From the IMG/VR virus record IMGVR_UViG_3300012210_000003: 47,261 bases of DNA; one strand, given 5' to 3'. Source of the stretch: a virus. Of the stretch, positions 1-47,261 are shown piece after piece (the stretch's first letter is position 1; the number at the start of each line of letters is the position of its first letter). Below the pieces are notes generated by a model, which saw only the letters and a program-made list of their open reading frames with translations, was not told the DNA's origin and searched no databases. A program made the position numbers and the translations under genes.

Positions 1-123
1 ACCTTGCGATACGGTGTACGTACACCCCGAAGGACGGAGCAGCCGAAATGACCGTCACCGCCAAACCCCACAACCCCACTACCACCGACCCGTTCGCCCT
101 GATCCCCGCAGCCGACGGCTACG
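1..123. repeat. Terminal overlap copy A (identical to 47139-47261)
   Basis: Direct comparison of the window ends shows 123/123 identical bases. Either a circular-assembly overlap or a short direct terminal repeat. Confidence 0.95.
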
Positions 124-3440: not shown

Positions 3441-3940
3441 CCGACCAGCTCGCGCTCGACGAAGCCGCCGGGTGCCCCGGCGGCCATCGGGCGCTGCTCG
3501 ACGTGTTCGTACCCGGCCGCCCCGCACCCCAAGGCTCGAAACGCCACGTCGGCAAGGGAATCATGATCGAGATGTCGAAACACGTCGCGCCGTGGCGCAC
3601 CGACATCCGCGAGGCCGTGATCGCCGCCCGGAAGGCATACCACGCCGCCACCATCGCCAGCTTCACCGCCGGCGCCCCGGCGGCCGGCCCGATGCTGGTG
3701 CGGCTGGAGTTCGTCATGCCCCGCCCCGCCGGCACACCGAAACGCCGCACACCGGCCGCCGTGAAACGGCCGGACTGCGACAAGCTCGCCCGCGCTGTCC
3801 TGGACGCTGTCGGCTCCGCCGGGTGTGTGTGGGTCGACGACTCGCAGGTGGTCGACCTGCACGCCACCAAGAGGATCGCCGAACCCGGCGAGGCACCCGG
3901 TTGCCGCATCACCATCCACACACCCGCGAGCCAGCCATGA
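3437..3940 (+). CDS. rusA: RusA-family Holliday junction resolvase
   Basis: ATGA-coupled start. GRPAPQGSKR, PDCDKLARAVLDA and WVDDSQVV blocks are typical of RusA. Confidence 0.85.
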   Translation: MTDQLALDEAAGCPGGHRALLDVFVPGRPAPQGSKRHVGKGIMIEMSKHVAPWRTDIREAVIAARKAYHAATIASFTAGAPAAGPMLVRLEFVMPRPAGTPKRRTPAAVKRPDCDKLARAVLDAVGSAGCVWVDDSQVVDLHATKRIAEPGEAPGCRITIHTPASQP

Positions 3941-4236
3941 AGCCGATCTTCGTCGCCATCCCGCGCGGGCACGGCCTCATCCTGCACCTGCACTCACCCG
4001 GCTACCGGCCAGGGCCCAAACCGCGAGGCATCGGCGACTCGGCCGCGCTGTGCAACTACAGCATCCACGGCGACCCGCTCGTGCCGCTGCGCGACGGCCT
4101 GCACCTCAAACCCACCGGCACGGATCCGCGCCCGGCGTGGCGCTGGTGCCGCTCCTGCATCGGACACGCCGTCGCCATCGCCGGCCTCGACCAGGAAGTT
4201 CTGACCTGGATCGCGACAGGGACGGAGAAGCCATGA
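3937..4236 (+). CDS. hypothetical protein (99 aa)
   Basis: ATGA overlap at 3937-3940. In frame with track ORF 3160..4236. Confidence 0.7.
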   Translation: MKPIFVAIPRGHGLILHLHSPGYRPGPKPRGIGDSAALCNYSIHGDPLVPLRDGLHLKPTGTDPRPAWRWCRSCIGHAVAIAGLDQEVLTWIATGTEKP

Positions 4237-6542: not shown

Positions 6543-7021
6543 CCCAGCCGGCAACCACGACCACCGCGCCGAACCCGCCCCCCGGCGACGCGGCCGACGA
6601 CGTCATCACCACCGCTTTGGTCGCCGCCATCCTCGCCCACTGGGCACACCACAAAATCCGGGACCTACTCAAAAAACTCCACCGCATCCACCCCGACACC
6701 ATCGACTGGATGCTCAACCACACCCTCTTCGCGAAACTCCTCACCATGGACAACCACACCCCCACCGACCCCATCCTCGCCGCCGCCCGCCACCGCAACA
6801 TCCAACGCCGCGCCGCCTACGCAGTCGCCGCCACACGCCGCATGGACACCGCACTCGACACCCACCACCTACCCACCATCCGCGCCGCCTGGACCCAAGA
6901 ACTCGACCACATGGGCGCGCACCTCGCCGCGAACCACGCCCGCAACGCAGCCTGGAACACCGACGCCCGAGTCGAAGACCTCGCGGACGCACGCATGATG
7001 TTCGACGGCGTGATCAACTAG
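6539..7021 (+). CDS. hypothetical protein (160 aa)
   Basis: ATGA-coupled start. In frame with track ORF 6092..7021. Confidence 0.7.
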   Translation: MTQPATTTTAPNPPPGDAADDVITTALVAAILAHWAHHKIRDLLKKLHRIHPDTIDWMLNHTLFAKLLTMDNHTPTDPILAAARHRNIQRRAAYAVAATRRMDTALDTHHLPTIRAAWTQELDHMGAHLAANHARNAAWNTDARVEDLADARMMFDGVIN

Positions 7022-7048
7022 GCCCGTGACCTACAGTTAAATCGAGAT

Positions 7049-7092
7049 CCGACCCGATGCGATTGACCCGATGGGGGGTGACCCGATGCGAT
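7049..7092 (+). repeat. Three direct copies of GACCCGATG at the terS start
   Basis: Copies at 7051-7059, 7065-7073 and 7080-7088 (14-15 nt spacing). Copies 1 and 3 extend to GACCCGATGCGAT. Each copy contains an ATG. Confidence 0.85.
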
Positions 7093-7628
7093 CGAAGTGC
7101 GCTGGCCGGAACAAGCACACCAAGGAGCCGTGCGGGTCGTGGCCAACCAAGGGCAGCCCGGTGTGCCGGATGCATGGCGGTAGCGCACCGCAGGTCAAGA
7201 CGGCCGCCGCTGGCCGGCTCGTCGAGCGGGAAGCCCGCAAGGCGTTCGGGCGGCTGGCTGACGTGTCTGCCCCGGTCACCGACCCGCTCACCGCGTTGGC
7301 CGAGCTGGCCGGGCACGTGAACGCGTGGATGAAGTTCCTGGCCGGCCGCATCAGCGCGTTGGAGTCCCTGTCCTACGACAGCGGGTTCGCCGGCGAGCAG
7401 ATCCGCGGCGAGATCCAGTTGTGGGAGCGGGCGATGGACCGCTGCAACGCCGTGTTCGGCACCGCGGCCCGCCTGAACATTGACGAGCGTCTGGCGGCGA
7501 TCACGGAGCGGCAGGCCGAGGTCGTCATGGCGGCGATCGAAGCCGCCCTGGACGCGGCGCAAGTGCCGCCCGCTGGGCGCGCGGACGCCAAGCGCGCGGC
7601 GGCGCGCCGGTTGCGTGTCGTGGCGTGA
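7071..7628 (+). CDS. terS: terminase small subunit
   Basis: Lies immediately upstream of the large terminase. The N-terminal CxGxxxxxxxPC...C.MHGG block is seen in actinophage small terminases. Alternative start at ATG 7086. Confidence 0.65.
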   Translation: MGGDPMRSKCAGRNKHTKEPCGSWPTKGSPVCRMHGGSAPQVKTAAAGRLVEREARKAFGRLADVSAPVTDPLTALAELAGHVNAWMKFLAGRISALESLSYDSGFAGEQIRGEIQLWERAMDRCNAVFGTAARLNIDERLAAITERQAEVVMAAIEAALDAAQVPPAGRADAKRAAARRLRVVA

Positions 7629-9070
7629 TGGACACCCTGATCCGTGCCGCGCAGTTGCTGGAGCGGGACGCCGACGGCGAGGGCCGGGAGGAGCCGCTGG
7701 GCCAGATGACGGCCCGCCTGGACCCGACCACGGTCCAAACCCCCGCGTTGGACCTGCTCGACGCGAAACTCTGCGCTGTCGCCGATGGGCAGGTGAGCCG
7801 GCTGATCTGGTCGATGCCACCGCAGGAAGGCAAGTCGGAGCGGGTGTCTCGCCGGTTCCCGGCGTGGATGCTGCGCCGCGACCCCGACCTGCGCATCGCC
7901 ATCGCCAGCTACGAACAGCGGGTCGCGACCCGGTGGGGGCGGGCGATCCGTAACGACCTGATCGAACACCCCGACCTCGGGTTGACCGTCCGCCGCGACA
8001 CGGCGGCCGCGCACGAATGGCAGTTGGACGGGCACCGCGGCGGCGTCTACTCGGTGGGTATCGGCGGTGCGTTGACCGGGCGCCCGGTGGATCTGCTGGT
8101 CATCGACGACCCGGTGAAGGGCCGCGCTGAGGCCGACTCGGAGGTGTATCGGGAGGCGTGCTGGGACTGGTGGACCAACGTCGCCCGCACCCGCCTCGCC
8201 CCAGGCGCGCCGGTGGTGTTGATCCTGACCCGCTGGCACGAAGACGACCTCGCCGGCCGGCTGGAGGCCACGGACCGGGGATGGGAGCTGGTGAACGTCC
8301 CCGCGCTGGCCGACACCGACACAGACCCGCTCGACCGGGCACCAGGCGAGTTCCTGGTGTCCGCGCGGGGCCGCACCGCACAGGACTGGCTGGATATTCG
8401 CAGCGACGTGGGCGAGCGCGTGTGGGGCGCGCTGTATCAGGGGCGGCCGTCACCAGCGGAGGGGGCGCTGTTGAAGCGGGGTTGGTGGCGGTACTACCCG
8501 GCGCCGATGTGGCGGGAGCAACCGGACGGGTCGATGCGGGTGCACGACGCGGACCGGGTGATCGCGTCGTGGGACATGACGTTCAAGGACACCCGGGCAT
8601 CCGACTATGTGGTCGGCGGGGTGTGGGCGTTGAAGGGCGCGAACGCGTATCTGTTGGATGTGGTGCGGGACCGGATGGACTTTCCGACCACGTGTCGGGC
8701 GGTGCAGGCGTTGGCGGCGAAGTGGCCGCAGGCGTCCGCGAAGTTGGTTGAGGACAAGGCGAACGGGTCGGCGGTGATCGCGCAGTTGAAGTCGGTGGTG
8801 GCGGGGTTGGTTGCGGTGAACCCGACCGAGTCGAAGGAGGCCCGCGCGTCGGCGGTGTCGCCGTACGTGGAGGCCGGGAACGTGTGGCTGCCCGCGCCGG
8901 CGCTGGCGCCGTGGGTGGCTGGGTTCGTGGAGGAGTGCAGCGCGTTTCCGAACGGCACGCACGATGACCAGGTGGACATGGCGACACAGGCGTTGGCGCG
9001 CCTGATGTTGAAGGGTGTGCCCCGGATTCGGAGTTTCAACGTGTCACCGCGTGTTCCGCTGGGAGGATGA
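7625..9070 (+). CDS. terL: terminase large subunit
   Basis: 481 aa. Contains PPQEGKS (Walker A-like), LLVIDDP (Walker B-like) and TRWHEDDL. GTGA overlap with terS (alternative ATG 7628). Confidence 0.9.
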   Translation: MMDTLIRAAQLLERDADGEGREEPLGQMTARLDPTTVQTPALDLLDAKLCAVADGQVSRLIWSMPPQEGKSERVSRRFPAWMLRRDPDLRIAIASYEQRVATRWGRAIRNDLIEHPDLGLTVRRDTAAAHEWQLDGHRGGVYSVGIGGALTGRPVDLLVIDDPVKGRAEADSEVYREACWDWWTNVARTRLAPGAPVVLILTRWHEDDLAGRLEATDRGWELVNVPALADTDTDPLDRAPGEFLVSARGRTAQDWLDIRSDVGERVWGALYQGRPSPAEGALLKRGWWRYYPAPMWREQPDGSMRVHDADRVIASWDMTFKDTRASDYVVGGVWALKGANAYLLDVVRDRMDFPTTCRAVQALAAKWPQASAKLVEDKANGSAVIAQLKSVVAGLVAVNPTESKEARASAVSPYVEAGNVWLPAPALAPWVAGFVEECSAFPNGTHDDQVDMATQALARLMLKGVPRIRSFNVSPRVPLGG

Positions 9071-9074
9071 GGGT

Positions 9075-9308
9075 ATGGCGACGAGTGAACAGTTGCGGGT
9101 CGAGTTGGTGGCGGTGTTGGTGCGGTATCGGCGGCGGATCAGTGACCGTGGTGGCGTGGTGCCGGAGGCGTGTGTGGGGGAGCTGGTGGCGGTCGCGGAG
9201 CGGCACACCGCCGGGTGGGCGCCGGATCCGGCGCCTGTGGCGGTGAAGCCACCGGTGCCGGGGCCCGGCCGCCGGCAGGTACGGCGCCCCGCCGAGCATC
9301 CGGCCTGA
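9075..9308 (+). CDS. hypothetical protein (77 aa)
   Basis: ATG 9075 is preceded by GGGAGGATGAGGG. In frame with track ORF 9015..9308. Confidence 0.6.
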   Translation: MATSEQLRVELVAVLVRYRRRISDRGGVVPEACVGELVAVAERHTAGWAPDPAPVAVKPPVPGPGRRQVRRPAEHPA

Positions 9309-9311
9309 CCG

Positions 9312-9332
9312 CCGATAAGTGGGTGTTATCGG
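9312..9332. terminator. Hairpin between convergent genes (left edge of accessory island)
   Basis: CCGATAA-gtgggtg-TTATCGG, a 7-bp stem with a 7-nt loop. Confidence 0.45.
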
Positions 9333-9343
9333 AGGTCAGATAG

Positions 9344-9454
9344 TCAGTAGGTGGCGACCCACCACACAGTGAACACGAGTGCGGCCACCACGGCCACGCC
9401 CCAATAGATCACCGTGAACCGGACCCAACCATCCAACTGTCGCCACCAGTTCAT
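9344..9454 (-). CDS. 36-aa single-pass membrane peptide (alternative 50-aa form from GTG 9493)
   Basis: Sequence MNWWRQLDGWVRFTVIYWGVAVVAALVFTVWWVATY. This is the C-terminal part of track ORF 9344..9661, whose upstream part would overlap the XRE gene. No clear Shine-Dalgarno. Confidence 0.4.
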   Translation of the reverse strand: MNWWRQLDGWVRFTVIYWGVAVVAALVFTVWWVATY

Positions 9455-9462
9455 CGCATTCT

Positions 9463-9478
9463 GATCTGTTAACAGATC
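9463..9478. promoter_or_regulatory. Perfect 16-bp palindrome GATCTGTTAACAGATC (operator-like)
   Basis: Self-complementary over 16/16 nt. Lies in the A/T-rich divergent spacer, 8 nt upstream of the peptide ATG. Confidence 0.6.
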
Positions 9479-9579
9479 GTTTGAATCAGCCACAGGATCA
9501 TCATGCTCCGCTGCCTCTTGAGCGTCAAGCGCATCAGGTGCGTGTTGTGCAGATATCAAAATGATGCGATGATGCCGGC

Positions 9580-10038
9580 ATGGCTGACGAGCAGCACAAG
9601 AACACGACCGGACCTGTGGGGGACGCCGTGGCCGCGAACGTGACCCGCATCCGTGACGCACAACACCTGACGTACGTCGATCTGTCCAAGCGGCTGACCG
9701 ACATCGACCGCCCGATCGCCGTCCTCGGCCTGCGACGCATCGAACGCGGCGAGCGTCGCGTGGATACCGATGACCTGCTGGCCTTGGCGGTCGCGCTGGG
9801 TGTGCACCCGGTCGACCTGCTCATCCCGGCGGACCTCGCCGACGACGCGCTGTACAGCGTCACGCCGGATGTCTCGATGACGGCTGGTCGCGCGCGGGAG
9901 TGGATCGCCGGCCGGAATTTCCTGGTCGAGCCGAGCGACCCGGTGGAACGAGCACGGATGCTCCAATCCCTGCCGCCCGAGCGGGCCGCGTCGTTCTGGG
10001 ACTTCGATCAGCAGCGCCATGGCAGACGACGACCCTGA
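9580..10038 (+). CDS. XRE/Cro-CI-family HTH regulator (152 aa)
   Basis: N-terminal ..IRDAQHLTYVDLSKRL...LGLRRIERGERRVDTDDLLALAVALGVHPVDLL matches the HTH_3-type pattern. Track ORF. Confidence 0.8.
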   Translation: MADEQHKNTTGPVGDAVAANVTRIRDAQHLTYVDLSKRLTDIDRPIAVLGLRRIERGERRVDTDDLLALAVALGVHPVDLLIPADLADDALYSVTPDVSMTAGRAREWIAGRNFLVEPSDPVERARMLQSLPPERAASFWDFDQQRHGRRRP

Positions 10039-10138
10039 CACCAAGACCCCTGACAACCCCCTCGAAGTCACTTCGGGTTTCGGGTCTCGGCCCAGACAAG
10101 GAACGCGCAGAACGCGACCGCGACGACGATCACCTCGG

Positions 10139-10435
10139 TCACCGCAGGATCCCGAACGTGAAATGCACAATCAACCACCCGAACAGCAACACCACCACCA
10201 CCGCCAACACCCAATGCTCCGGCGCCCACTGCCCCACCGGCTGGTTCGCGATCACGTCACCGATGCGCCACATCTGCGCCGACAGCGTGTTCTCCGAATG
10301 CCCGGACGCGATGGCGTACACCTCGGGCGGCAGGAACAGCACCAGCACGAAGAACCCGACGACGGACAGCCAGTACGCGGACCACGCGTTGTAGGGCACG
10401 TAGTCGATCGGCCGCGCCGGCAACACGCCGGTCAT
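10139..10435 (-). CDS. membrane protein (98 aa, about 3 hydrophobic helices)
   Basis: Track ORF. ATGA overlap with the upstream gene at 10432-10435. Hydrophobic stretches WLSVVGFFVLVLFL and WVLAVVVVLLFGWLIV. Confidence 0.7.
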   Translation of the reverse strand: MTGVLPARPIDYVPYNAWSAYWLSVVGFFVLVLFLPPEVYAIASGHSENTLSAQMWRIGDVIANQPVGQWAPEHWVLAVVVVLLFGWLIVHFTFGILR

Positions 10436-10980
10436 TGGGGTATCACCAGGCCGGTGTTGCGCTGCACCTGGATGTGCTCGTAGCAGTGCGGCGCCCCACC
10501 CAACATCGTGATCGCCTCACGCACCTCCGGTAGGGACTCGACCGGCTGCCCGGCCTGTTCGGCTGCCTTGCGTTCAGCGATGCACGGCAGACACATCATG
10601 CGCTGCGGCCGCTGCTCGGCCAGCGCTTGGGAGAACGTCTTGCGCTGGGAAATGTGGGTCATTACTGATCCTCTCATCTGGCTCGCCTCGGCCGGGTTCT
10701 CGCAGTCCCCGTGAAGCCACACCTTGTGCTTGTCAGAAGCCGTTGTGACGTCACAACGTTGCGGGCATTCCCGAGCGGCGTGATTCAGGGGCTCCCCGTT
10801 GCGGTCACGGCCGTCGGGAGCAGGCGCGTCGAGGATGCGCCGCGCCACGACCGCGGCTAGGTCCGGGGTGGACACGTCCACCCCGGGTTCGTCGAGACCA
10901 AGGCCGTCGAGCAGGCTCGCCCGGATCTTGTCCAGCGCTTCCCTGTAGATCCGCACGAGGTGTTCGGGTCCGCCCGCCAT
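10432..10980 (-). CDS. hypothetical Cys-containing protein (182 aa)
   Basis: Start set at ATG 10980-10978 (1-nt TGATG-type overlap with the upstream stop) instead of track start 11112. No recognisable domain. Confidence 0.6.
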   Translation of the reverse strand: MAGGPEHLVRIYREALDKIRASLLDGLGLDEPGVDVSTPDLAAVVARRILDAPAPDGRDRNGEPLNHAARECPQRCDVTTASDKHKVWLHGDCENPAEASQMRGSVMTHISQRKTFSQALAEQRPQRMMCLPCIAERKAAEQAGQPVESLPEVREAITMLGGAPHCYEHIQVQRNTGLVIPQ

Positions 10981-11195
10981 CACCGGGTCCTCTCCAGTTC
11001 GGCCTGCACGAGCAGGATTTTCGCGCGCGTGAGGTGCACGTCCGCCTCTTGGAGCAGGCCACCCACCTTCACTGTGTGCTGGCCGGTGAACTCCAGCAGC
11101 GACAGTTCCCACAGGCGTTGCGCTGCCTCGGTGTGGTCGTGCGCGGTCCAGTTTTTCCAGGTGGATGGGTCCTTACTCGGACGCTGAAAACTCAC
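10980..11195 (-). CDS. hypothetical protein (71 aa)
   Basis: Track ORF with a GTG start. Overlaps the upstream gene end by 23 nt. Confidence 0.45.
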   Translation of the reverse strand: MSFQRPSKDPSTWKNWTAHDHTEAAQRLWELSLLEFTGQHTVKVGGLLQEADVHLTRAKILLVQAELERTR

Positions 11196-11607
11196 CGACG
11201 TTCACCCCGCTCGCGGCGTCGATAGCATGCTGCCACTGCAACAGGAACCTCTCGAACAGGTGCTGCTGGCACGCCGCCCACGCGACACTGTCCTGCACCA
11301 GCTCCCGGCTCACCAACTGACGCCAGGAACCCTCACCAGTCTCGTAGGTGACCTCCGCACTGCCGGGCAGGTCGACGCTGTTGATGACCGACCACCACAC
11401 GTCCAGGACACCCAACGCCTTACGCGGTACCCACAGGAACTCGTACGGTGCCGGTTCGATGAACGACCGCTCGTCCATCGCCAGTTTCAACCGCTGTCCG
11501 TCCGGCAGCCGGCGGGTGACCCGGGCCATGGAGCGGTTCTCGGTGAACAGGTAGTCGCCGCCGCTGGTTTCGACCGTGTCGGTGTCCGGGTTGTAGCCGG
11601 TGATCAC
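11173..11607 (-). CDS. hypothetical protein (144 aa)
   Basis: Start set at GTG 11607-11605 (GTGA overlap with the HTH gene stop at 11604-11606). In frame with track ORF 11173..11661. Confidence 0.6.
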   Translation of the reverse strand: MITGYNPDTDTVETSGGDYLFTENRSMARVTRRLPDGQRLKLAMDERSFIEPAPYEFLWVPRKALGVLDVWWSVINSVDLPGSAEVTYETGEGSWRQLVSRELVQDSVAWAACQQHLFERFLLQWQHAIDAASGVNVGEFSASE

Positions 11608-11834
11608 GCGCTCTCCTTCGAGGTCAATTCGGCGAGGATCAACGCGGTCGACACCCGCCACCCGCCACCTACTTTCATGACACGCACCGGAAAAGTACCA
11701 GCCGATGCCATCTCGTACGCCGTAGTCCGGCTCAGTCCGAAAACAAGGCCCGCTGTCACCAGGTCGACCACTGCCGGAAACTGCCGAACTTCATCAATGG
11801 TGTAGGTAGCAGGTGTCCTCATGCCGGCCAGCAT
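11604..11834 (-). CDS. excisionase/AlpA-type (HTH_17-like) DNA-binding protein
   Basis: GLSRTTAYEMASAGTFPVRVMKVGGGWRVSTALILAEL fits the Xis/MerR-superfamily winged HTH. Codon third positions are markedly A/T-rich. Confidence 0.7.
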   Translation of the reverse strand: MLAGMRTPATYTIDEVRQFPAVVDLVTAGLVFGLSRTTAYEMASAGTFPVRVMKVGGGWRVSTALILAELTSKESA

Positions 11835-11848
11835 AGCCTACGTACCAA

Positions 11849-11864
11849 GCAATCCCAGGATTGC
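11849..11864. promoter_or_regulatory. Inverted repeat GCAATCC-ca-GGATTGC in a divergent promoter region
   Basis: 7-bp arms with a 2-nt spacer. Lies 14 nt upstream of the leftward HTH gene start, between divergent genes. Confidence 0.5.
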
Positions 11865-11956
11865 CGACTCGTCCACACGCGACTTACCTTCCGCACAAAC
11901 CAGCGCGCGATCTTCACCCGCCTGCTGGCGCCACGCGCACGCGGAAGGGGGACGTC

Positions 11957-12652
11957 ATGCCAGAGCCGCAGACGTCACCCCCCAATGCAGATGACAACCT
12001 CGTCATGGTCGAGGTCTACGGTTTACGCGCCGTCGTCAAGCGCGCCGAGTACGAGCGCTGGGCGTGGGGGCTCGACGTGTCGGCGATCCGACAGGACCTC
12101 ATGGCCGACCAGTGCGCGATCGCTGTCGCCGATCGACGCTGCTCCCGAGGCGCCATTGAGGACTTCGGTGTTCTGAGACTCTGCTGGCAGCATCATGAGA
12201 AGCTCATAGCCGGCTTCAGGCAGGCACTTCGCAAGGACGACGCGCTGCTTGCTGCTGCTCGACAGGTCATAGCGGACAAGGACGCGACCGGTCGCTCGCG
12301 GCAGCAAACCGAGCGGGATGTTCGCCTCAAGCAGGACAGCGTCGTCTACTTCGTCGAGCGCGACGGTTTCGTCAAGATCGGCTACTCGTCTGACCTTGTG
12401 AAGCGACTCGCTGCTATTGGTCGCGGGAACTCAATGCCAGCCGGAATGTCGGTGGGTCCGGTTCGCCTACTCGCCACGATGCCCGGTGCGCGGCCGAAGG
12501 AAGGCTACCTCCACCGCAACTTCGATTACCTACGGCTCGGCGGTAGCGAGTGGTTCCTGCTCGACAACGACCTATGGACCTTCATCACCGGACTGAAGGG
12601 ATACACGGGCGAACCGCGCATCACTGCTGAATCACTGGTCGGTGCGCGATGA
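11957..12652 (+). CDS. T5orf172 / GIY-YIG-superfamily domain protein
   Basis: C-terminal VYFVERDGFVKIGYSSDLVKRLAAI ... VRLLATMPG...EGYLHRNF...RLGGSEWF matches the T5orf172 pattern (from memory). ATG 11957 follows AAGGGGGA. Lower G+C. Confidence 0.7.
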   Translation: MPEPQTSPPNADDNLVMVEVYGLRAVVKRAEYERWAWGLDVSAIRQDLMADQCAIAVADRRCSRGAIEDFGVLRLCWQHHEKLIAGFRQALRKDDALLAAARQVIADKDATGRSRQQTERDVRLKQDSVVYFVERDGFVKIGYSSDLVKRLAAIGRGNSMPAGMSVGPVRLLATMPGARPKEGYLHRNFDYLRLGGSEWFLLDNDLWTFITGLKGYTGEPRITAESLVGAR

Positions 12653-12936
12653 CGTTGAGCATCGTGTGGGCGCCCCGCACACCCGGCGCGCCCCCCGGAC
12701 GTCTCGCCCGCTGGACCCGCGCGCTGGCCAACACCACCAAGACCATCGCCGCCGCCGCCGTCACCCCACACCGCGCCGCGCTCAGCCGCGTCCGCGACAT
12801 GCCGTTGTCCCTCACCGGGACCGCACTCATCGACTGGGCCAGCTTCCACGTCAACACCGGCGTCGGCCTACTCGCCACCGGCCTGTCCCTGTGGCTCGTC
12901 GAACATTTGCTCAGCGACAACGACGACCCGGCATGA
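12649..12936 (+). CDS. hypothetical protein with C-terminal hydrophobic helix (95 aa)
   Basis: Track ORF. ATGA overlaps at both ends (12649-12652 and 12933-12936). Confidence 0.6.
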   Translation: MTLSIVWAPRTPGAPPGRLARWTRALANTTKTIAAAAVTPHRAALSRVRDMPLSLTGTALIDWASFHVNTGVGLLATGLSLWLVEHLLSDNDDPA

Positions 12937-14327
12937 AATCCGGGCTGCGCCGGCTGGTCGCCCAAAAAACCCCCGTCCCCCTCGCCCCCGCCGGCAACGG
13001 CTCCGGCGCCATGCGCATGTCCCTGGTCGGTGGCACCGCCAACAACGACACCTACCTGCGTGCCTACAGCCGCAACGGCACCGTCTACAGCATCGTCTCC
13101 CTGCTCGCCGAAAAAGCGGCCAGTGTCCGGTGGCGGCTGTACAAGAAACAACCCGTCGACGGACGCCGCCGCTACACCACCAGCGACGCCGGCTCCGACC
13201 AACGCACCGAAGTCACAGTGCACCCCGCACTGAAGCTGTGGAACAAACCCAACAACTTTTTCACCGGCTTCGAATACCGCGAAGGCTCAAACCAACACTG
13301 GGAATTGACCGGCGAAACCTTCTGGATCTGCGACCGCGAAAACGCGCTCGGCATGCCCACCTCCATGTGGTACATCAACCCCGGCCGCATGACACCAGTC
13401 CCCGACCCCGAAGAATACTTGATCGGCTGGATCTACACCGGACCCAACGGGGAACAATACCCGATCCCCCTCCGCAATGTGATCCTGGAGAAAAGCCCCG
13501 ACCCCATCGACGGATACCGGGGTTCCGGGCCGGTCGCACCCATCCTCGCCAATTTGGACGCGCAGAGGTACGCCACCGAATACCAGCGGAACCTGTTCGT
13601 CAACGGCGCCGACACCGGCGGTGTCCTCTCCTACGACGGCGAGTTGACCGACCCACAGTTCGAGGCGTTGGTGAAGCGGTGGCGGGAGCAACACCAAGGC
13701 GTCGCCCGCGCCGGCGCGGTCGGCGTGCTGGAGAACGGCATCACGTGGCAGCCCCGTGGTGTCACGAACAAAGACATGGAATACGGCAACCTCAGGTTGG
13801 CGAACCGGGACGAGATCCGGGAAGCGTGGCGCATCCACAAAGCCATGTTGGGCACCACCGATGACGTCAACCGCGCCAACGCCGAAACCGCCGACGAAAT
13901 CTTCTCCGGTACCCTGCTGATTCCCCGGCTGAACCGGCGCCGGGAAACGGTGAACCACAAGCTGTTGCCGATGTTCGGGGACGACACCGTCGAGTTCGAC
14001 TATGACTCGCCGATGGTGCTCGACAAGGAGCAGGAAAACGCGGAACTCACCGCGAAAGCGAACGCGTGGGCCACCCTGGTCAACGCCGGCGCGGATCCGC
14101 ACGACGCGGCCGAAATCGTGGGGCTGCCGGACATGGACATGGTCGAGACCGCGACGCAGGCGCCCGCCCTGCCGCCGGGCTGGACATCGGCGACACCGCC
14201 GGCATCGGGCGGGCCGGTTGACCCGGACGAACAGGCCGCCACAGCAGTCGCCGGGTTGCTACGCCGACAGATGCGGCCCTTCACCGTGCGGGCGCTACCC
14301 GCTGCGGCACAGAACCGGAGGCGATGA
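12933..14327 (+). CDS. portal protein (HK97-type)
   Basis: Start moved to ATG 12933, in frame with track ORF 12642..14327. Size, position upstream of protease and capsid, and overall sequence pattern fit a portal. Confidence 0.85.
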   Translation: MKSGLRRLVAQKTPVPLAPAGNGSGAMRMSLVGGTANNDTYLRAYSRNGTVYSIVSLLAEKAASVRWRLYKKQPVDGRRRYTTSDAGSDQRTEVTVHPALKLWNKPNNFFTGFEYREGSNQHWELTGETFWICDRENALGMPTSMWYINPGRMTPVPDPEEYLIGWIYTGPNGEQYPIPLRNVILEKSPDPIDGYRGSGPVAPILANLDAQRYATEYQRNLFVNGADTGGVLSYDGELTDPQFEALVKRWREQHQGVARAGAVGVLENGITWQPRGVTNKDMEYGNLRLANRDEIREAWRIHKAMLGTTDDVNRANAETADEIFSGTLLIPRLNRRRETVNHKLLPMFGDDTVEFDYDSPMVLDKEQENAELTAKANAWATLVNAGADPHDAAEIVGLPDMDMVETATQAPALPPGWTSATPPASGGPVDPDEQAATAVAGLLRRQMRPFTVRALPAAAQNRRR

Positions 14328-14330
14328 GTC

Positions 14331-15749
14331 GTGGAACCCAAGCGCTGGTACCGAATCCAGAACCTTTCCAGCGGCATCACGGATGTGTCGATCTTCGACG
14401 AGATCGGCATCATGGGTGTCACCGCACAGGACTTCCTGGCGGACCTCCCCTCCGGTCGCGGCCCGCTGCTGCTGCACCTGAATTCGGGCGGCGGCGAGGT
14501 GTTCGAGGGTTTGGCGATCTATCACGCCCTGCGTAACCGGGGGAACGTCACCGTGCGGGTGGAGGGTGTCGCCGCGTCGATCGCGTCGGTGATCGCGATG
14601 GCCGCCGACCCCGGCAAGCTGGAGATCGCGAAACGCGCCTCCATGATGATCCACAACGGGTTCGCGCAGCAGGTCGGCGACGCCAACGACATGCGCAAAA
14701 TGGCCGACGTCCTTGAGGCGCAAACCCGGAACATCGCCGGCGTCTACGCCGACCGCACCGGCATCCCGGCCGACGTGTGGACCGGCAGGATGCAGGCCGA
14801 AACCTGGTACATCGGGCAGCAGGCCGTCGACGTTGGCCTGGCTGACCGGGTCGTGGACGTCGACCAGGCCGGCATGCCCTCCGGGGGCAACGGGAACCTG
14901 GATCGGGTCGCGGCCCGCATGGTGGTGCTGGTCAATTCGGACGGCACGCACACGGCGATGGAGGGTACCCACACGCACGGTGCGGCCGGCACCCACACCC
15001 ACCACGGCGACGCCAACCACACCACCACGAACGCCAATGGCGGCGGCCGGCCAGTGGACCGCGCCAAGGCTGTCCTGATCGCCGCCGGGTTCAGCGAAGC
15101 CGACACCGCCGCGCTCCTCGTCGCCGAGGGCGGCAAGGGCGCGGCCGGCGACGGCAAGGGCGCCGCGCTGGGCACCCCCGCCAGCAAAGGCTGGTACCAC
15201 CGCGACGGCAAGTGCGTGTTCGACCCCGACGGCGACGGCGACAACGACGCCACCCCCGAAGGCGACACCGATCACGACTTCTTCACCGCCGACGGGGAAC
15301 AAACCAAAGCCATCCCGGACTGCCCCGACCACCCCGGCACCGGGAAACCCATGCCCACCAACCAGTTGGCCACCACCCTGTTCGCCACGACCACCGCCGA
15401 CACGTCCCCATGGGACGCGTCGAAAGCCTGGCACTCCGGCGCCAACTCCGACGACCCCGCCGCGTTCTACAAGGGGATCTGCGCCGGCCGCCGCTCCGGT
15501 GACCCGTCCAACCAGGACTCGTGGGCGCTGCCCTACCGGTACAGCCCGAGTTCACTACCCAACGCCGCTGGTGTCCGGGCCGCGCTCGGGCGGCTGTCAT
15601 CCACCCACGGGCTGACCAACAGCACGGAAGCCCGCTCCAAATTGGAAGGGCTCATGAAGAAGATCAACCCCGATTACGAGCCGTCCGATCTGGACACATC
15701 AGTGATCCAGTCGCTGCTCGTCTCAGCCCTCGAAGGGGGTAGGCGGTAA
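14331..15749 (+). CDS. ClpP-like (S14) prohead protease with long C-terminal extension (possible scaffold)
   Basis: NSGGGEVFEGLAIYHAL ... GVAASIASVIAMA ... MIHN blocks. The C-terminal ~280 aa include a His/Thr-rich stretch. Confidence 0.85.
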   Translation: MEPKRWYRIQNLSSGITDVSIFDEIGIMGVTAQDFLADLPSGRGPLLLHLNSGGGEVFEGLAIYHALRNRGNVTVRVEGVAASIASVIAMAADPGKLEIAKRASMMIHNGFAQQVGDANDMRKMADVLEAQTRNIAGVYADRTGIPADVWTGRMQAETWYIGQQAVDVGLADRVVDVDQAGMPSGGNGNLDRVAARMVVLVNSDGTHTAMEGTHTHGAAGTHTHHGDANHTTTNANGGGRPVDRAKAVLIAAGFSEADTAALLVAEGGKGAAGDGKGAALGTPASKGWYHRDGKCVFDPDGDGDNDATPEGDTDHDFFTADGEQTKAIPDCPDHPGTGKPMPTNQLATTLFATTTADTSPWDASKAWHSGANSDDPAAFYKGICAGRRSGDPSNQDSWALPYRYSPSSLPNAAGVRAALGRLSSTHGLTNSTEARSKLEGLMKKINPDYEPSDLDTSVIQSLLVSALEGGRR

Positions 15750-34388: not shown

Positions 34389-34586
34389 ATGATCTACGGC
34401 ATGACCGCACGTCGCGTACCGACCGGTGAAGCCGCGAAGGCCATCGGTGTGGACGTGCGCACCCTGCAACGCTGGGTCGAGAACGGTCTCGTCGAGCCGG
34501 ACGGCTACACGGCGGGCGGGCACATGCGGTGGGACGTCGAACGGCTCCGCACCGCGCTACGCGACCTGCGGCAACGCGACGAGTAG
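34389..34586 (+). CDS. MerR/excisionase-type HTH protein (possible RDF or regulator)
   Basis: AAKAIGVDVRTLQRWVENGLVEPD...GGHMRW fits the MerR-superfamily HTH. Alternative start at ATG 34401. Confidence 0.7.
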   Translation: MIYGMTARRVPTGEAAKAIGVDVRTLQRWVENGLVEPDGYTAGGHMRWDVERLRTALRDLRQRDE

Positions 34587-35603: not shown

Positions 35604-36079
35604 CGCGCGGCCCGATCGGCTAGGACCCGCTGCCAGGTGCGCACGACAACACGCGCCACCTCGAACCCGATCCATGCGGGCAACCCGTAGGCGACGACAC
35701 CGAACGCCAGGAACCACAGCCCGGCCGGCCGGGTCGCGGCGATGCCCATCAGGGTGGCCAGCCCGAGCGCGGCCGGTACGAGGATCTTCGCGGCCCGCCG
35801 GTTGATGGCCTGCACGCTGGACAACCGGCGTCGGTGTCGCGGCGGCCGTGGCCGCCTGGTCAGGCCGGCCCAGGTGACGGTGACGCCGGCCAGCAGCAGC
35901 CCGCCCAGTAGGACGTAGATCCCGGCGCGGTGCTCGGGCAGGGTGAGGATCGCGACGACCTGGCCGAGACCGACGGCGACCGGGAAGGCGTAGAGGACGC
36001 CGACGCGGAGGATGCTGGTGGCCCAGCCGGCGAGCGTGGCGATGCCGCGCACGACCGACGAACGGTGGATGGTGGACAC
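35600..36079 (-). CDS. polytopic membrane protein (159 aa, about 4 helices)
   Basis: Start at GTG 36079, preceded by GAAGGAG. The upstream part of track ORF 35600..36298 would overlap int. Hydrophobic helices throughout. Confidence 0.65.
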   Translation of the reverse strand: MSTIHRSSVVRGIATLAGWATSILRVGVLYAFPVAVGLGQVVAILTLPEHRAGIYVLLGGLLLAGVTVTWAGLTRRPRPPRHRRRLSSVQAINRRAAKILVPAALGLATLMGIAATRPAGLWFLAFGVVAYGLPAWIGFEVARVVVRTWQRVLADRAAR

Positions 36080-36114
36080 GGGGACTCCTTCGTGGTCATC
36101 GAAGGAGTGGCCCC
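36080..36114. other. Inverted repeat upstream of int (candidate attP core)
   Basis: ACTCCTTCG (36084-36092) / CGAAGGAGT (36100-36108), with GGGG/CCCC flanks and a 7-nt centre TGGTCAT. Lies 50 nt upstream of the int start. Confidence 0.35.
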
Positions 36115-36164
36115 TAGCGAAGTTTAAGGAGCCATACCCCTTCTCAGGGGCTACAGTACGCACC

Positions 36165-37658
36165 GTGAGCACACCACGCAATGATGACCTTCGTACCGGC
36201 CGCGAGTACCTGCGTGTCAGCGTCGACCGGTCCGGCCGCAGCAGGTCCACCGACGAGCAGCACGAGGACAACGCCCGAACAGCCGAAGGCCACGGCATCC
36301 AGCTCGGCGTCCCCTACCTGGACACCAATCGGTCCGCCTCCCGGTACGCACGCGTGGCCCGCGAGGACTTCGACACACTGGTCGCGGACCTACGCGAAGA
36401 CCGGTTCGGCGCCGACCATCTCGTGCTGTGGGAATCCTCCCGCGGCTCCCGGAAGGTCGGCGAGTGGGTTGAGCTGATCGAGCTGTTGGAGCAGCGCCGG
36501 GTACGTGTGCTGGTGACGACGCACGGCCGTGTCTACGACCCAGCGAATCCCCGCGACCGGCGGTCGCTGCTGGAGGACGCGGTCGACTCCGAGTACGAGT
36601 CGGCGAAGACGTCGTTGCGGGTGCGGCGCGACACCGCGTCGGCGGCGGCGAAAGGCCGCCCACACGGGCGGCCCCCGTTCGGGTATCGGCGCCGCTACGA
36701 CCCGGTGTCCGGTGTGCTGTCCGCGCAGGAGATCGACCCGGACGAGGCGCCGCTGGTGCGGGAGTTGTTCGACCGGCTCGTCGCGGGCCACTCGCTGTAC
36801 GCCATCGCGAAGGACTGGCGGGAACGCGGCATCGTCAACCGGTCCGGGAAGCCGTTCCTGGCGCCGCACCTGCGGAACATGGCCTTGAACGAGGCGTACC
36901 GAGGGTTGCGGCTCCACTCCCCCGGCCGGCGCGGCGGTAACCGTCCCTCGGAGGACGCGGTGATCTCGCTGGCGGCGTGGCCCGCGCTGGTGCCGGCACC
37001 GACGTTCCTGGCTGTGCGCCGGTTGCTGACCGCGCCGGAGCGGCGGGTGTCCCGGCCTGGCCGCGGGATTCATCTGCTGTCGATGATCGCGGTGTGCGAT
37101 CCGTGCGGGTCGGTGCTGCACGTGCAGTATGTGCGCGGCGTGGCCCAGTACCGGTGCAAGGAGCGCGGGTGTGCGGGCGCGGTCGAGTCCGAACTGGATG
37201 GCGTGGTCGAGCGGGAGATCGTGTTGTTCCTGGCCCGGCCTGAGTTGCGTGGGCAGTTGTCGGAGGACGAGACGGAGAACGCCGAGCTGGCCGGGGTGCG
37301 CACCGAACTGGCAGAGGCCAGGACCCTGGTGGTCGACCTGGTCAAGGCGGTGACGTCGAAGCAAATGACCGTGCAGTTGGCGGGGCAGGTGGAGCGGGAG
37401 ACGCGCCAGCAGATCGTGGTGCTGGAGCGGCGGGAGCGTGAGCTGACGACGCCGAGCGTGCTGCGAGGATTGATCGAGCCGGGGGCCGATGTGGCCGCGC
37501 GTTGGGAGGCTGCGCCGATGTCTACGAAGCGGATGGTGGCGCGGATCTTGTTGACGCCGGAGTGGATGGGTGAGGTGCGGGTGCGGCCGTCGGGGCGTGG
37601 TCGGCGGCGGTTGCCGGTGCCGGTGGGTGAGCGTGTGGTGTTCCTGCGGACCGCGTAA
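36165..37658 (+). CDS. int: large serine recombinase (integrase)
   Basis: YLRVSVDRSGRSRSTDEQ catalytic-Ser block, ESSRGSR, a recombinase-domain GYRR region, a Cys cluster (CDPC ... CKERGC) and a coiled-coil C-terminus. GTG 36165 chosen. Confidence 0.9.
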   Translation: MSTPRNDDLRTGREYLRVSVDRSGRSRSTDEQHEDNARTAEGHGIQLGVPYLDTNRSASRYARVAREDFDTLVADLREDRFGADHLVLWESSRGSRKVGEWVELIELLEQRRVRVLVTTHGRVYDPANPRDRRSLLEDAVDSEYESAKTSLRVRRDTASAAAKGRPHGRPPFGYRRRYDPVSGVLSAQEIDPDEAPLVRELFDRLVAGHSLYAIAKDWRERGIVNRSGKPFLAPHLRNMALNEAYRGLRLHSPGRRGGNRPSEDAVISLAAWPALVPAPTFLAVRRLLTAPERRVSRPGRGIHLLSMIAVCDPCGSVLHVQYVRGVAQYRCKERGCAGAVESELDGVVEREIVLFLARPELRGQLSEDETENAELAGVRTELAEARTLVVDLVKAVTSKQMTVQLAGQVERETRQQIVVLERRERELTTPSVLRGLIEPGADVAARWEAAPMSTKRMVARILLTPEWMGEVRVRPSGRGRRRLPVPVGERVVFLRTA

Positions 37659-38112: not shown

Positions 38113-38520
38113 TCACCCGGCTGGACGCTCGCGGGCCCGTTCGGCGTTGAGCCGGTCGACCTCGTCGTGCAGCATTCGTAGCGCCTTTTCCGGACCGTGG
38201 TCGCGCTCCCATGCCAGATAGATAAGCCTGAGCGCCTGCTGCTCCTGAGTAAGCGGCGGTTTGTCCATTTGGAGCGGTGTCGGATCACCGCCAGCCAGGA
38301 TGCCCTCGACGCTTCCTGGTGGCCATTGCAAGGCGCGCTCGATGCCGCGCACTGCGAGGTCTGTGAGCGTGGTCGCGCCGCTGCGGATCTTATGCAGGTT
38401 GCCGTAGGTCATGCCCGCCCGGTCGGCGACCTCGTTCCAGCGCAGTCCTAGGTCGACCCGCCGCCGGTTCATTGCCTTGTCGAGGAGCTTCCTCCGCTCC
38501 TGCTCACTCTCCGTGCTCAT
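38113..38520 (-). CDS. CI-like XRE-family repressor
   Basis: HTH block GLRWNEVADRAGMTYGNLHKIRSGATTLTD. Start at ATG 38520, preceded by GAGCGGGGGA. Divergent from the Cro-like gene. Confidence 0.8.
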   Translation of the reverse strand: MSTESEQERRKLLDKAMNRRRVDLGLRWNEVADRAGMTYGNLHKIRSGATTLTDLAVRGIERALQWPPGSVEGILAGGDPTPLQMDKPPLTQEQQALRLIYLAWERDHGPEKALRMLHDEVDRLNAERARERPAG

Positions 38521-38631
38521 GATCCCCCGCTCGGTGACATGAGATCTCATTACATCACATGAAGACGCCTGGGGACACCGCAGGTTCGCAGATCTCTGGC
38601 ATTAACATCTCATATGATGTAATGTCATCTC
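38521..38631. promoter_or_regulatory. Divergent immunity-switch region with repeated ATCTCAT/ATGAGAT half-sites
   Basis: Perfect palindrome ATGAGATCTCAT (38539-38550). ATCTCAT recurs at 38607-38613 and 38627-38633. Inverted pair CATTACATCA / TGATGTAATG. A/T-rich. Confidence 0.65.
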
Positions 38632-38883
38632 ATGCCATCCCCCCAGACGTTCAGCGGCGAGCGGCTCACGCGGGCACGCCTCGCGGCCGGCCTGCTCCAG
38701 CGAGAGCTTGCCGAGAGATGCATCGAGCGAGGGGAGAAGGTCGATCAGACGCAGATCAGCCACTGGGAGGCTGGACGCCACGCGCCGCTGCCCTCGAAGC
38801 AACGCGCGCTAGCCGAAGTATTGGGGTGCTCGGTCGATGACCTCCATGACCGCACGCAGGAGCCATCGGCGGTGGCGTTGTGA
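38632..38883 (+). CDS. Cro-like XRE-family HTH protein
   Basis: LTRARLAAGLLQRELAERC...QTQISHWEAGRHAP. Track ORF, divergent from the repressor. Confidence 0.8.
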   Translation: MPSPQTFSGERLTRARLAAGLLQRELAERCIERGEKVDQTQISHWEAGRHAPLPSKQRALAEVLGCSVDDLHDRTQEPSAVAL

Positions 38884-47093: not shown

Positions 47094-47162
47094 GGTGTAC
47101 GTACAGAAAGTCTACCGGAACCCTTGTGGTGTACGTACACCTTGCGATACGGTGTACGTACA
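47094..47162. promoter_or_regulatory. Three copies of GGTGTACGTACA, each containing the perfect 10-bp palindrome TGTACGTACA
   Basis: Palindromes at 47096-47105, 47130-47139 and 47153-47162 (the last equals 15-24). They lie between the divergent RHH gene and the gene starting at 48 (47186). Confidence 0.8.
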
Positions 47163-47261
47163 CCCCGAAGGACGGAGCAGCCGAAATGACCGTCACCGCC
47201 AAACCCCACAACCCCACTACCACCGACCCGTTCGCCCTGATCCCCGCAGCCGACGGCTACG
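47139..47261. repeat. Terminal overlap copy B (identical to 1-123)
   Basis: Same comparison. The offset between copies is 47,138 nt. Confidence 0.95.

Follow-up and report, generated by a model that had tools for sequence, protein, structure and literature searches.

A terminase-portal junction with fast-changing cargo genes and a conserved, putatively regulatory gene-spacer unit in a temperate actinobacterial siphovirus

IMG/VR record IMGVR_UViG_3300012210_000003 (47,261 nucleotides; this whole analysed stretch is called the window below) is the complete, circularly assembled genome of a temperate siphovirus, an actinobacterial phage. A block of about 3.6 kb separates its gene for the large terminase subunit (TerL) from its portal gene. 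We propose that this block is a composite cargo locus with fast turnover, sitting on a conserved regulatory module that marks the start of the portal-head-tail operon. Taking structure and proposed functions jointly, we lean towards this reading with some reserve. The structural and evolutionary description, drawn from the observed anatomy, conservation pattern, breakpoints and domain content, is given with high confidence; the functional inferences are tentative.

The conserved part is a small gene of predicted excisionase type, g8, together with the divergent spacer beside it. Comparison of relatives shows the two travelling together across lineages, as a unit heading a late-gene block. The reverse-strand genes downstream of g8 are, by the same comparison, short and modular, encode Cys/His-rich or membrane proteins and are reshuffled between close relatives. 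A cassette carrying a regulator of the XRE family appears as a presence/absence allele among genomes that are 99.9% identical. The conserved pattern of g8, spacer and portal-proximal gene g10 therefore argues for a regulator/promoter module with variable cargo, and not for a simple insertion into the TerL-portal junction.

Anatomy and composition of the locus

An original prediction had described positions 9309-12936 as an opposite-strand island of foreign origin. The borders that it set, a TerL end at 9070 and a portal start at 12933, are both borne out by Pfam matches and gene models, as are its nine open reading frames (ORFs), six on the minus strand (g2 and g4-g8) and three on the plus strand (g3, g9 and g10). 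Genes were called from frame bias in the G+C content of third codon positions (GC3), a choice made because the GC content of the window is high (68%), together with start codons and inspection of ribosome-binding sites (RBS). Labels such as L001, L109 or L135 denote comparison loci or genomes; L102 is Streptomyces phage Dagobah. The elements of the locus, with protein lengths in amino acids (aa) and transmembrane segments as TM, are:

7625-9070, plus strand: TerL gene; Pfam Terminase_6N/6C; 96% aa identity in L001
9075-9308, plus strand: g1, 77 aa, travels with TerL; RBS GGGAGGA upstream of the ATG, GC3 0.84
9306-9340: hairpin CTGACCGCCGATAA-7 nt-TTATCGGAGGTCAG between the convergent g1 and g2, with 13/14-bp arms
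9344-9454, minus strand: g2, 36 aa, single-pass membrane peptide (1 TM), last gene of the reverse unit; GC3 0.83 from an internal ATG
9458-10135: allele-A cassette, 678 bp, comprising an AT-rich spacer (GC 0.50), g3 and a tiny TM ORF
9463-9478: perfect 16-bp palindrome GATCTGTTAACAGATC, candidate g3 operator
9528-9500, minus strand: promoter-like site TTGACG-17-CATGAT; the palindrome lies between this site and the g2 start
9580-10038, plus strand: g3, 152 aa, XRE-family helix-turn-helix (HTH) protein; Pfam HTH_3 8e-6, phrog_11503 8e-16
10068-10142, minus strand: tiny ORF VTEVIVVAVAFCAFLVWAETRNPK, 24 aa, 1 TM, predicted; GTGA-coupled to the g4 stop and missed by the original prediction
10139-10435, minus strand: g4, 98 aa, two-pass membrane protein (2 TM by hydropathy); GC3 0.95; phrog_3555, unknown function
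10432-10980, minus strand: g5, 182 aa, modular and Cys/His-rich, with a mini-domain CPxRxDVTTAxD...LHGDC and a C-terminal CxxC...HCxxH module
10980-11195, minus strand: g6, 71 aa; 84% homologue in L001, absent in L112/L113; no family in Pfam or PHROGs
11173-11607, minus strand: g7, 144 aa, near-orphan; RBS GAAGGAG, GC3 0.87
11604-11834, minus strand: g8, 76 aa, predicted excisionase-type HTH_17 DNA-binding protein, first gene of the reverse unit
11835-11956: divergent spacer, 122 bp, with a promoter-like motif and the RBS GGAAGGGGG that serves g10 in relatives
11861-11890, plus strand: promoter-like motif TTGCCG-18-TACCTT, facing the late genes
11957-12652, plus strand: g9, 231 aa, T5orf172/GIY-YIG type, with an N-terminal C-C-C-H motif
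12649-12936, plus strand: g10, 95 aa, small and hydrophobic, stop overlapping the portal start; GC3 0.91
12933-14327, plus strand: portal gene; Pfam Phage_portal 2e-56

The inventory drawn up earlier also stands. There are two HTH regulators (g3, HTH_3; g8, HTH_17), three proteins that match no family in Pfam or PHROGs (g5, g6 and g7) and an intact T5orf172-type protein above Pfam cut-offs (g9). Among the predicted membrane proteins, put at three or four, g2, g4 and the 24-aa ORF are clear and g10 is borderline by hydropathy. The g1 gene, outside the interval first delimited, has a 49% homologue at the same position in L001 and no family match in Pfam or PHROGs.

The claim of foreign origin fared less uniformly. 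Third codon positions had been described as A/T-richer at 11604-11834 and 12150-12650, and GC3 is indeed lower in g8 (0.68, z -4.0) and in g9 (0.74, z -2.7; 0.71 within 12150-12650), measured against 33 reference genes (0.854 +/- 0.042). The A/T-ending codons named as evidence are, however, infrequent in g9, making up 12 of its 231 codons, with TTT, AAA and GTA absent. The deviation is restricted to g8 and g9; g2-g7 fall within the genome's range (z -1.2 to +2.3). Two genes thus deviate in composition, but most of the cargo is native in this respect, and the block is composite rather than a single foreign island.

A conserved gene-spacer unit at the head of the late genes

Homologues of g8 occupy the same position in L001, L112/L113, L018, L033 and L135, and one precedes the gene for the putative small terminase subunit (terS) in L109. 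Both L018 and L033 (Terminase_6 TerL, portal 39%) carry a reverse-strand g8-like gene between TerL and a g10-like gene followed by the portal. L135 has the g8/g10/portal module in common with them, but a P-loop TerL. The spacer aligns well among the window, L001, L112 and L113, its RBS included, and is homologous to the one between a g8-like gene (61%) and terS in L109-L111. A motif scan placed TTGCC[GC]-18-TA[AC]C[TC]T at the equivalent position in four lineages, and from this motif we infer promoter activity of the spacer.

The spacers beside the g8-like genes of L018 (9784-9860) and L033 (4077-4130) differ from that of the window and contain a tandem TGTACAG-N3-TGTACAG, a candidate binding site for the g8 variant of these two loci. 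The literature was searched for Streptomyces phages with excisionase genes between terminase and portal, with no relevant result.

The protein family of g8 suggests another role. It could be a recombination directionality factor (excisionase), possibly a dual regulator of the Cox/Apl kind, in which case the reverse unit would belong to an excision/induction circuit and would not be accessory. Its sole annotated relatives are 'excise' genes of Gordonia and Tsukamurella phages, the Gordonia genes being the nearest, with 44% identity to 'excise' proteins. In L129-L133, L136 and L137, distant homologues neighbour an integrase in divergent orientation and are separated from it by an XRE gene; g3-like XREs are likewise found beside integrases, and g8 is the sole reverse gene kept in all lineages. 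Both g3 and g8 belong to families typical of integration/excision control, yet here they lie 24-26 kb from the integrase. The serine integrase of the window (36012-37658) is 24 kb from g8, and linkage of the two is seen for distant homologues only. A MerR/HTH_17-type protein (34389-34586) sits 1.4 kb upstream of the integrase gene, g8 travels with the late-gene spacer and not with an integrase, and this explanation accounts for g8 alone while leaving the variable cargo unexplained. We regard it as unlikely.

On the other side of the spacer, the gene g10 had been counted as part of the island. This was rejected, as distant relatives too have the gene directly upstream of their portal. Homologues hold that position in at least 10 loci (L001-L003, L006, L008, L009, L011, L013-L015), and sequence inspection revealed a g10-like gene in L033, L105, L109 and L135 as well. 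With a g10-like gene beside the portal in relatives, g10 therefore belongs to the portal module; comparison shows it as an old gene of that module and not as cargo. The adjacency of TerL and portal, taken as the norm by the original prediction, holds for the relatives examined: the two genes are adjacent in LuckyBarnes and MinS1 and separated by a g10-like gene alone in L003, L006, L008 and L014. In these relatives the junction is empty or near-empty. None of g2-g9 has a conserved position beside structural genes; g10 alone does, so that the accessory, non-virion character ascribed to the block, which fits the differing gene sets of close relatives (L001, L112/L113 and the allele B described below), does not extend to this portal-coupled gene.

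The same comparisons locate an exchange boundary. In the IMG/VR relatives L003, L006, L008, L009, L011 and L014 (portal 56-62%), a P-loop TerL is followed by the g10-like gene and the portal. Within the portal lineage of the window (lineage A), L002-L014 carry a P-loop TerL whereas the window has Terminase_6; within lineage B, L135 has the P-loop type whereas L018 and L033 have Terminase_6. The boundary just upstream of the g8-spacer unit is thus a recurrent point of terminase-module exchange in two portal lineages; in the window's lineage the set found upstream of the unit is terS/TerL/g1 of the Terminase_6 type.

Two further junctions may be mentioned here. L037 (9424-12689) and L038 (9424-12188), with TerL 60% and portal 38%, have a TerL-portal gap of 2.8-3.3 kb filled with same-strand genes. 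Their products, a different kind of cargo for this junction, include a small membrane protein and two proteins that carry HEFGH metalloprotease-like motifs. In L102 a 93-aa ORF (3789-4070) occupies the g10 position and overlaps the portal start; its label, 'putative cysteinyl-tRNA synthetase', is probably a mis-annotation. L102 also has three small reverse-strand genes upstream of terS, resembling the arrangement in L109.

Turnover of the reverse-strand cargo

The contents of the reverse unit change over short distances. In L001 (TerL 96%, portal 91%), TerL and g1 are followed by a unit that reads from g8 through g7, g6, a stand-alone gene for the C-terminal module of g5 and a gene for a 164-aa protein to a tiny TM peptide, and then by g10 and the portal; g2, g3, g4 and g9 are missing. 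In L112/L113 (portal 94-95%), g8 is followed by a 199-aa g5-like protein and a 112-aa Zn-ribbon-like membrane protein, and g6, g7 and g9 are missing. Nucleotide identity with relatives is 83-93% in the structural genes (TerL, portal) versus 57-83% in the block.

The cargo proteins have few relatives. Modules of g5 recur separately in different proteins on either strand (L001, L004, L109 and L112), and g5 itself has only 4 clusters in 5.8 billion proteins. The same number was found for g7, whose profile search gave 10 representatives in 1.84 billion, none of them domain-bearing; the tenth was discarded as a spurious Ig-repeat match. AF2 models from 4-sequence alignments were unusable for g5 and g7 (pLDDT 44 and 48). 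Homologues of g4 occur on the late strand directly before TerL (65%, L109-L111) and before terS (32%, L012), and tblastn found none among isolated phages.

Cargo gene junctions (10432-10435, 10139-10142 and 9454-9457; also in L001, L109 and L112) have overlapping stop and start codons and recurring junction sequences. Several unrelated cargo proteins end in '...VVPQ*' or '...VIPQ*', followed by ATGAC or GTGAC, and the breakpoint between alleles A and B falls directly after a common GTGACCG. Cassette shuffling may use such short conserved junctions as microhomology.

An allelic cassette at the end of the reverse unit

An exact-match lookup with g7 retrieved genomes nearly identical to the window from several metagenomes; across about 20 kb, the differences are confined to two places, 9458-10135 and ~7048-7672. 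At the first of these, five of the six contigs listed (L096, L098, L099, L100 and L101) lack the allele-A segment, their flanks being 99.9% identical by blastn; the sixth, L097, has allele A and matches the window exactly. Allele B has a 403-bp segment instead, which encodes a single in-operon 138-aa Cys-rich protein (B138). The g2 start overlaps the stop of this 138-aa gene (ATGA) in allele B, and g2, with a Kyte-Doolittle (KD) hydropathy of 2.15, is called as a gene in all near-identical contigs. The C-terminal motif of B138 is common to a forward-strand protein in L004. An assignment of B138 to DUF6221 was rejected, with no Pfam match and no significant similarity to the DUF6221 protein of L109.

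The second mosaic difference replaces the putative terS and the TerL N-terminus in L096, L099 and L100. In these contigs terS has 179 aa and TerL 487 aa, versus 185 aa and 481 aa in the window.

Within allele A, the 16-bp palindrome has no second match in the window, not even at 3 mismatches, and its position suggests that g3 binds it and gates g2. The 24-aa ORF (KD 2.12) has a homologous peptide (...FLVWAESRNPK) that closes the reverse unit in L001. Relatives of g3 adjoin integrases: one in L136 (46%) is divergent from a g8-like gene, one in L138 stands beside a large serine recombinase and one in L139 beside a tyrosine integrase. None was found by tblastn among isolated phages and IMG/VR.

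The hairpin at the left edge, placed at 9312-9332 by the original prediction, is real and larger, extending over 9306-9340. Its folding energy is -21 and -19.3 kcal/mol on the two strands (z -3.65 and -4.19), and it is kept in L096-L101 and L113. Lying between convergent genes, it would be a bidirectional terminator of both transcription units.

These regulators could also be what is left of an integrative element or satellite that kept its xis-like and xre-like genes and lost its integrase. g8-like and g3-like genes do co-occur in modules with the order int <- xre <- | -> xis (L136, L132 and L133), and the composition of g8 is deviant. However, no recombinase domain was found in the ten products with Pfam and PHROGs, nor any transposase, and the block has no flanking direct or inverted repeats or att-like sites beyond short chance-level matches. 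Moreover, g3 is absent from the allele-B genomes, L001, L112 and L113, all of which have g8, so that the two regulators were acquired separately. With g8 and its spacer integrated with the late operon in several lineages, we give this explanation very little credence.

An endonuclease-type gene inserted before g10

The g9 product scores above the Pfam cut-offs for MUG113 (23.7 bits, cut-off 22.3) and T5orf172 (20.8, cut-off 20). Elsewhere it is named 'GIY-YIG nuclease family protein', and its family is a small actinobacterial clade of ~20 clusters. In a 13-sequence alignment the core is invariant (VYFVERDGFVKIG, R150, E182, H186 and G-E-W-F) and C53, C62, C76 and H79 are nearly so, giving a Zn-finger-like N-terminus. 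The gene is missing from L001, L112 and L113, and window positions 11951-12665 correspond to 26 bp in L001. The insertion point is exactly the g10 start codon: g9 uses the RBS of g10, and homology returns ~16 nt into g10. L105, which has a Terminase_3 TerL, carries a 43% homologue between its g10-like gene and the portal, and further homologues occur in unrelated contexts. T5orf172 genes have been described as homing endonuclease genes (HEGs), whose commonest settings are terminase (35%) and capsid (31%) neighbourhoods and which also sit at exchange boundaries (PMC10448857). On these comparisons g9 behaves like a selfish insertion of the homing-endonuclease type. The notion of a selfish cassette, first put forward for the whole block, would apply to g9; the block as a whole has no recombinase or transposase and no terminal repeats.

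It is conceivable that the entire block is an island mobilised by this nuclease, with cargo variation as a by-product of homing. Elsewhere, T5orf172 genes border the regions that phages have exchanged (PMC10448857); exchange also recurs at this junction, and the fall in identity between structural genes and block (83-93% to 57-83%) would fit. On the other hand, cargo turnover and TerL exchange also occur in L001, L112/L113, L018, L033 and L135, which are without g9. There is a single nuclease gene and no flanking pair, and the g3-slot swap lies 1.8 kb from g9, with the intervening sequence 99.9% identical. We consider this very unlikely.

What the cargo might do

The small size, Cys/His or membrane character and fast turnover of the cargo fit effectors of conflict or host manipulation. 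The original prediction went further towards a prophage-expressed exclusion or defence cassette, and one could regard the block as one coherent, novel anti-phage defence or superinfection-exclusion system expressed from the prophage, in which HTH regulators control membrane and unknown effectors. The block does have a hairpin and promoter-like sites of its own and runs opposite to the late operon, two of its products (g2 and g4) are membrane proteins, and conflict loci typically show such rapid turnover and swapping of alleles. Moreover, a search of the island, promoter regions included, found no CI-operator-like motifs, so that direct control by the phage repressor is not indicated.

Nevertheless, none of g4, g5, g6, g7 and B138 matched PADLOC-DB v2 (5027 models) or the NCBIfam defence families, and the regulators and g9 gave only weak, generic PADLOC matches (g3, Control_protein, 3e-4; g8, MAD1, 0.02; g9, PDC-S57, 0.012). 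Against NCBIfam MAD1, g8 scored 0.005 with 17 bits versus a cut-off of 80. The statement that no named defence system has this gene set was confirmed with both resources. PDB sequence searches with g8, g9 and g3 returned no usable matches. The set is also not kept as a unit: relatives whose portals are 91-95% identical keep g8 alone together with other cargo, and this speaks against a machine of several genes. Elsewhere, genes related to g4 and to the g5 modules lie on the forward strand, and no finding here specifically favours a defence or exclusion function or expression in lysogens. A dedicated defence system is, in our estimate, distinctly improbable.

Proposed model and its weighing

In the reading that we prefer, a composite cargo locus on a regulatory module, the terminase transcript and the reverse transcript would both end at the 9306-9340 hairpin, and the portal-head-tail operon would restart from the spacer promoter. 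The g8 protein would bind the spacer and control one or both divergent units, with the reverse cargo transcribed independently of the late genes. The cargo products could act as small effectors against the host envelope or competing phages, and in allele A g3 would repress or gate the small membrane peptide g2 from the 16-bp palindrome. The g9 gene may spread by cutting junctions that lack it and may also promote recombination at the boundary.

A bolder form of this model can be drawn. The g8-spacer unit would be a switch that splits the late operon, an excisionase-family protein controlling the portal-head-tail promoter. The antisense transcript would be a landing pad for continually swapped miniature Zn-binding and membrane proteins, used as weapons in phage-phage or phage-host conflict, and allele A an abortive-infection or exclusion module with g2 as an XRE-gated 36-aa membrane toxin. 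We think it distinctly improbable that this form holds.

Several observations weigh against the proposed model. The promoter, terminator and operator roles are read from sequence motifs only; the hairpin has no U-tract, and a motif scan found no sigma-70-like promoter for g8 itself. The match of g8 to Pfam HTH_17 (E 7e-6, 26.6 bits) is slightly under the cut-off of 27. The cargo found no match in Pfam, PHROGs, NCBIfam, PADLOC or PDB beyond PHROGs of unknown function. Forward-strand relatives of g4 and of the g5 and B138 motifs occur in other phages; those of g4 (L109 and L012) and of the g5 mini-domain (L109 and L004) stand among pre-structural genes, which weakens the argument that an opposite strand implies prophage expression, and given the forward-strand relatives the cargo may equally consist of ordinary small early or late genes. 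For g9, no relative without the gene is close enough to reveal co-conversion tracts.

If the model is correct, three drivers of phage mosaicism would act at one junction, all anchored on a conserved small regulator and promoter. These are module exchange, which has put two unrelated TerL types in front of one portal module; insertion, at a gene start, of a gene of the homing-endonuclease type; and cassette swapping between otherwise 99.9%-identical genomes. The locus raises the questions of whether an excisionase-family protein controls a late structural promoter in actinophages, and whether the near-orphan mini-proteins (g5-g7, g2 and g4) are conflict effectors. Its most attractive features are the excisionase-type regulator heading a structural operon and the cassette polymorphism among near-identical genomes. 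It offers a well-delimited model locus and a caution that opposite-strand blocks in structural operons need not be foreign islands.

Relation to known systems

The locus is not a new class of system; it combines elements of known kinds, namely moron-like variability, a HEG-type T5orf172 gene and the exchange of modules. Accessory genes in temperate phages are the subject of the moron concept of Juhala and Hendrix, and Dedrick et al. in 2017 reportedly described prophage-expressed defence genes of mycobacteriophages. Like morons, the genes of the block occur in one phage but are missing or replaced in its close relatives, have their own terminator-like hairpin and promoter-like sites opposed to the late operon, and include the compositionally deviant g8 and g9. 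Unlike morons, the locus is no simple insertion but is tied to a conserved regulator-promoter module, and most of its cargo is native in composition. The block has no homology to characterised actinophage defence genes.

Cox and Apl are both excisionases and transcription regulators. g8 resembles the excisionase/AlpA/Cox-Apl regulators (HTH_17, Phage_AlpA) in its size of 76 aa, its HTH_17 match, its 'excise' homologues and its distant homologues beside integrases, and, as with Cox and Apl, it is divergent to an operon start. It differs from excisionases in lying away from the integrase and travelling with a late-gene spacer, with a Pfam score slightly under the cut-off. g3 is similar to XRE/Cro-C1 repressors of integration modules or 'control proteins' in its HTH_3 domain, its weak PADLOC Control_protein match, its integrase-flanking relatives and the palindrome in its upstream spacer. 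Unlike them, it is a second XRE in a phage that has its own CI/Cro switch, and its 678-bp cassette occurs in some but not others of a set of 99.9%-identical genomes. What it probably targets is the gene for a 36-aa membrane peptide, and neither an integrase nor a restriction gene.

Free-standing HEGs of the T5orf172 type (GIY-YIG superfamily) are known from ICP1, T5-like and other phages (Barth, Dunham & Seed 2023, PMC10448857). g9 shares with them the domain, the invariant core and an N-terminal Cys/His module of DNA-binding type, and it likewise lies beside terminase/capsid-module genes at an exchange boundary. It is also a gene-sized presence/absence polymorphism with its breakpoint at a gene start, and has a homologue at the same junction of a phage with an unrelated TerL. 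In contrast to the described HEGs, its family is a small actinobacterial clade and its nuclease activity, target and homing are putative; its N-terminus is a single C-C-C-H motif, not assigned to a domain of the CapR/DUF723 type.

Genome context and further observations

Window positions 1-123 are identical to 47139-47261, and from this 123-bp prefix/suffix identity the window is taken as a circularly closed assembly and a complete phage genome, with 47,138 bp of unique sequence. Identical proteins annotated from a 'Pseudonocardiaceae bacterium' metagenome-assembled genome suggest a host in the Pseudonocardiaceae. Isolated phages are distant (TerL identity <=58%, portal <=38%). A near-DNA search of window 7000-15000 against 50,697 phage records gave one 40-bp chance-like match only. 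A portal scan of GTDB genomes had no matches, a metagenome portal scan found the IMG/VR contigs again with zero new architectures, and an Rfam scan of 8900-13100 had no matches.

Apart from a PDDEXK nuclease and RusA in the early region, and a ClpP-type protease, the major capsid protein and tail and lysis genes, the following genes bear on the discussion:

7071-7628: putative terS, directly upstream of TerL; terS-like homologues precede TerL in TerL relatives
34389-34586: MerR/HTH_17-type protein, 1.4 kb upstream of the integrase gene
36012-37658: large serine integrase
38113-38550, minus strand: CI-like repressor
38632-38883, plus strand: Cro-like protein

As a canonical CI/Cro switch, the integrase and the MerR-like protein are located elsewhere, g3 and g8 are extra regulators. 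The CI/Cro-type immunity spacer (38539-38633) contains an operator-like 12-bp palindrome ATGAGATCTCAT, an inverted pair TTACATCACATGA / TCATATGATGTAA and two copies of CATCTCAT; in the whole genome these motifs occur only there. The ClpP-type prohead protease ORF (14331-15749) encodes 472 aa, with the Clp domain confined to residues 42-176. The long C-terminal extension, which relatives conserve to varying degrees, may be a fused scaffold domain.

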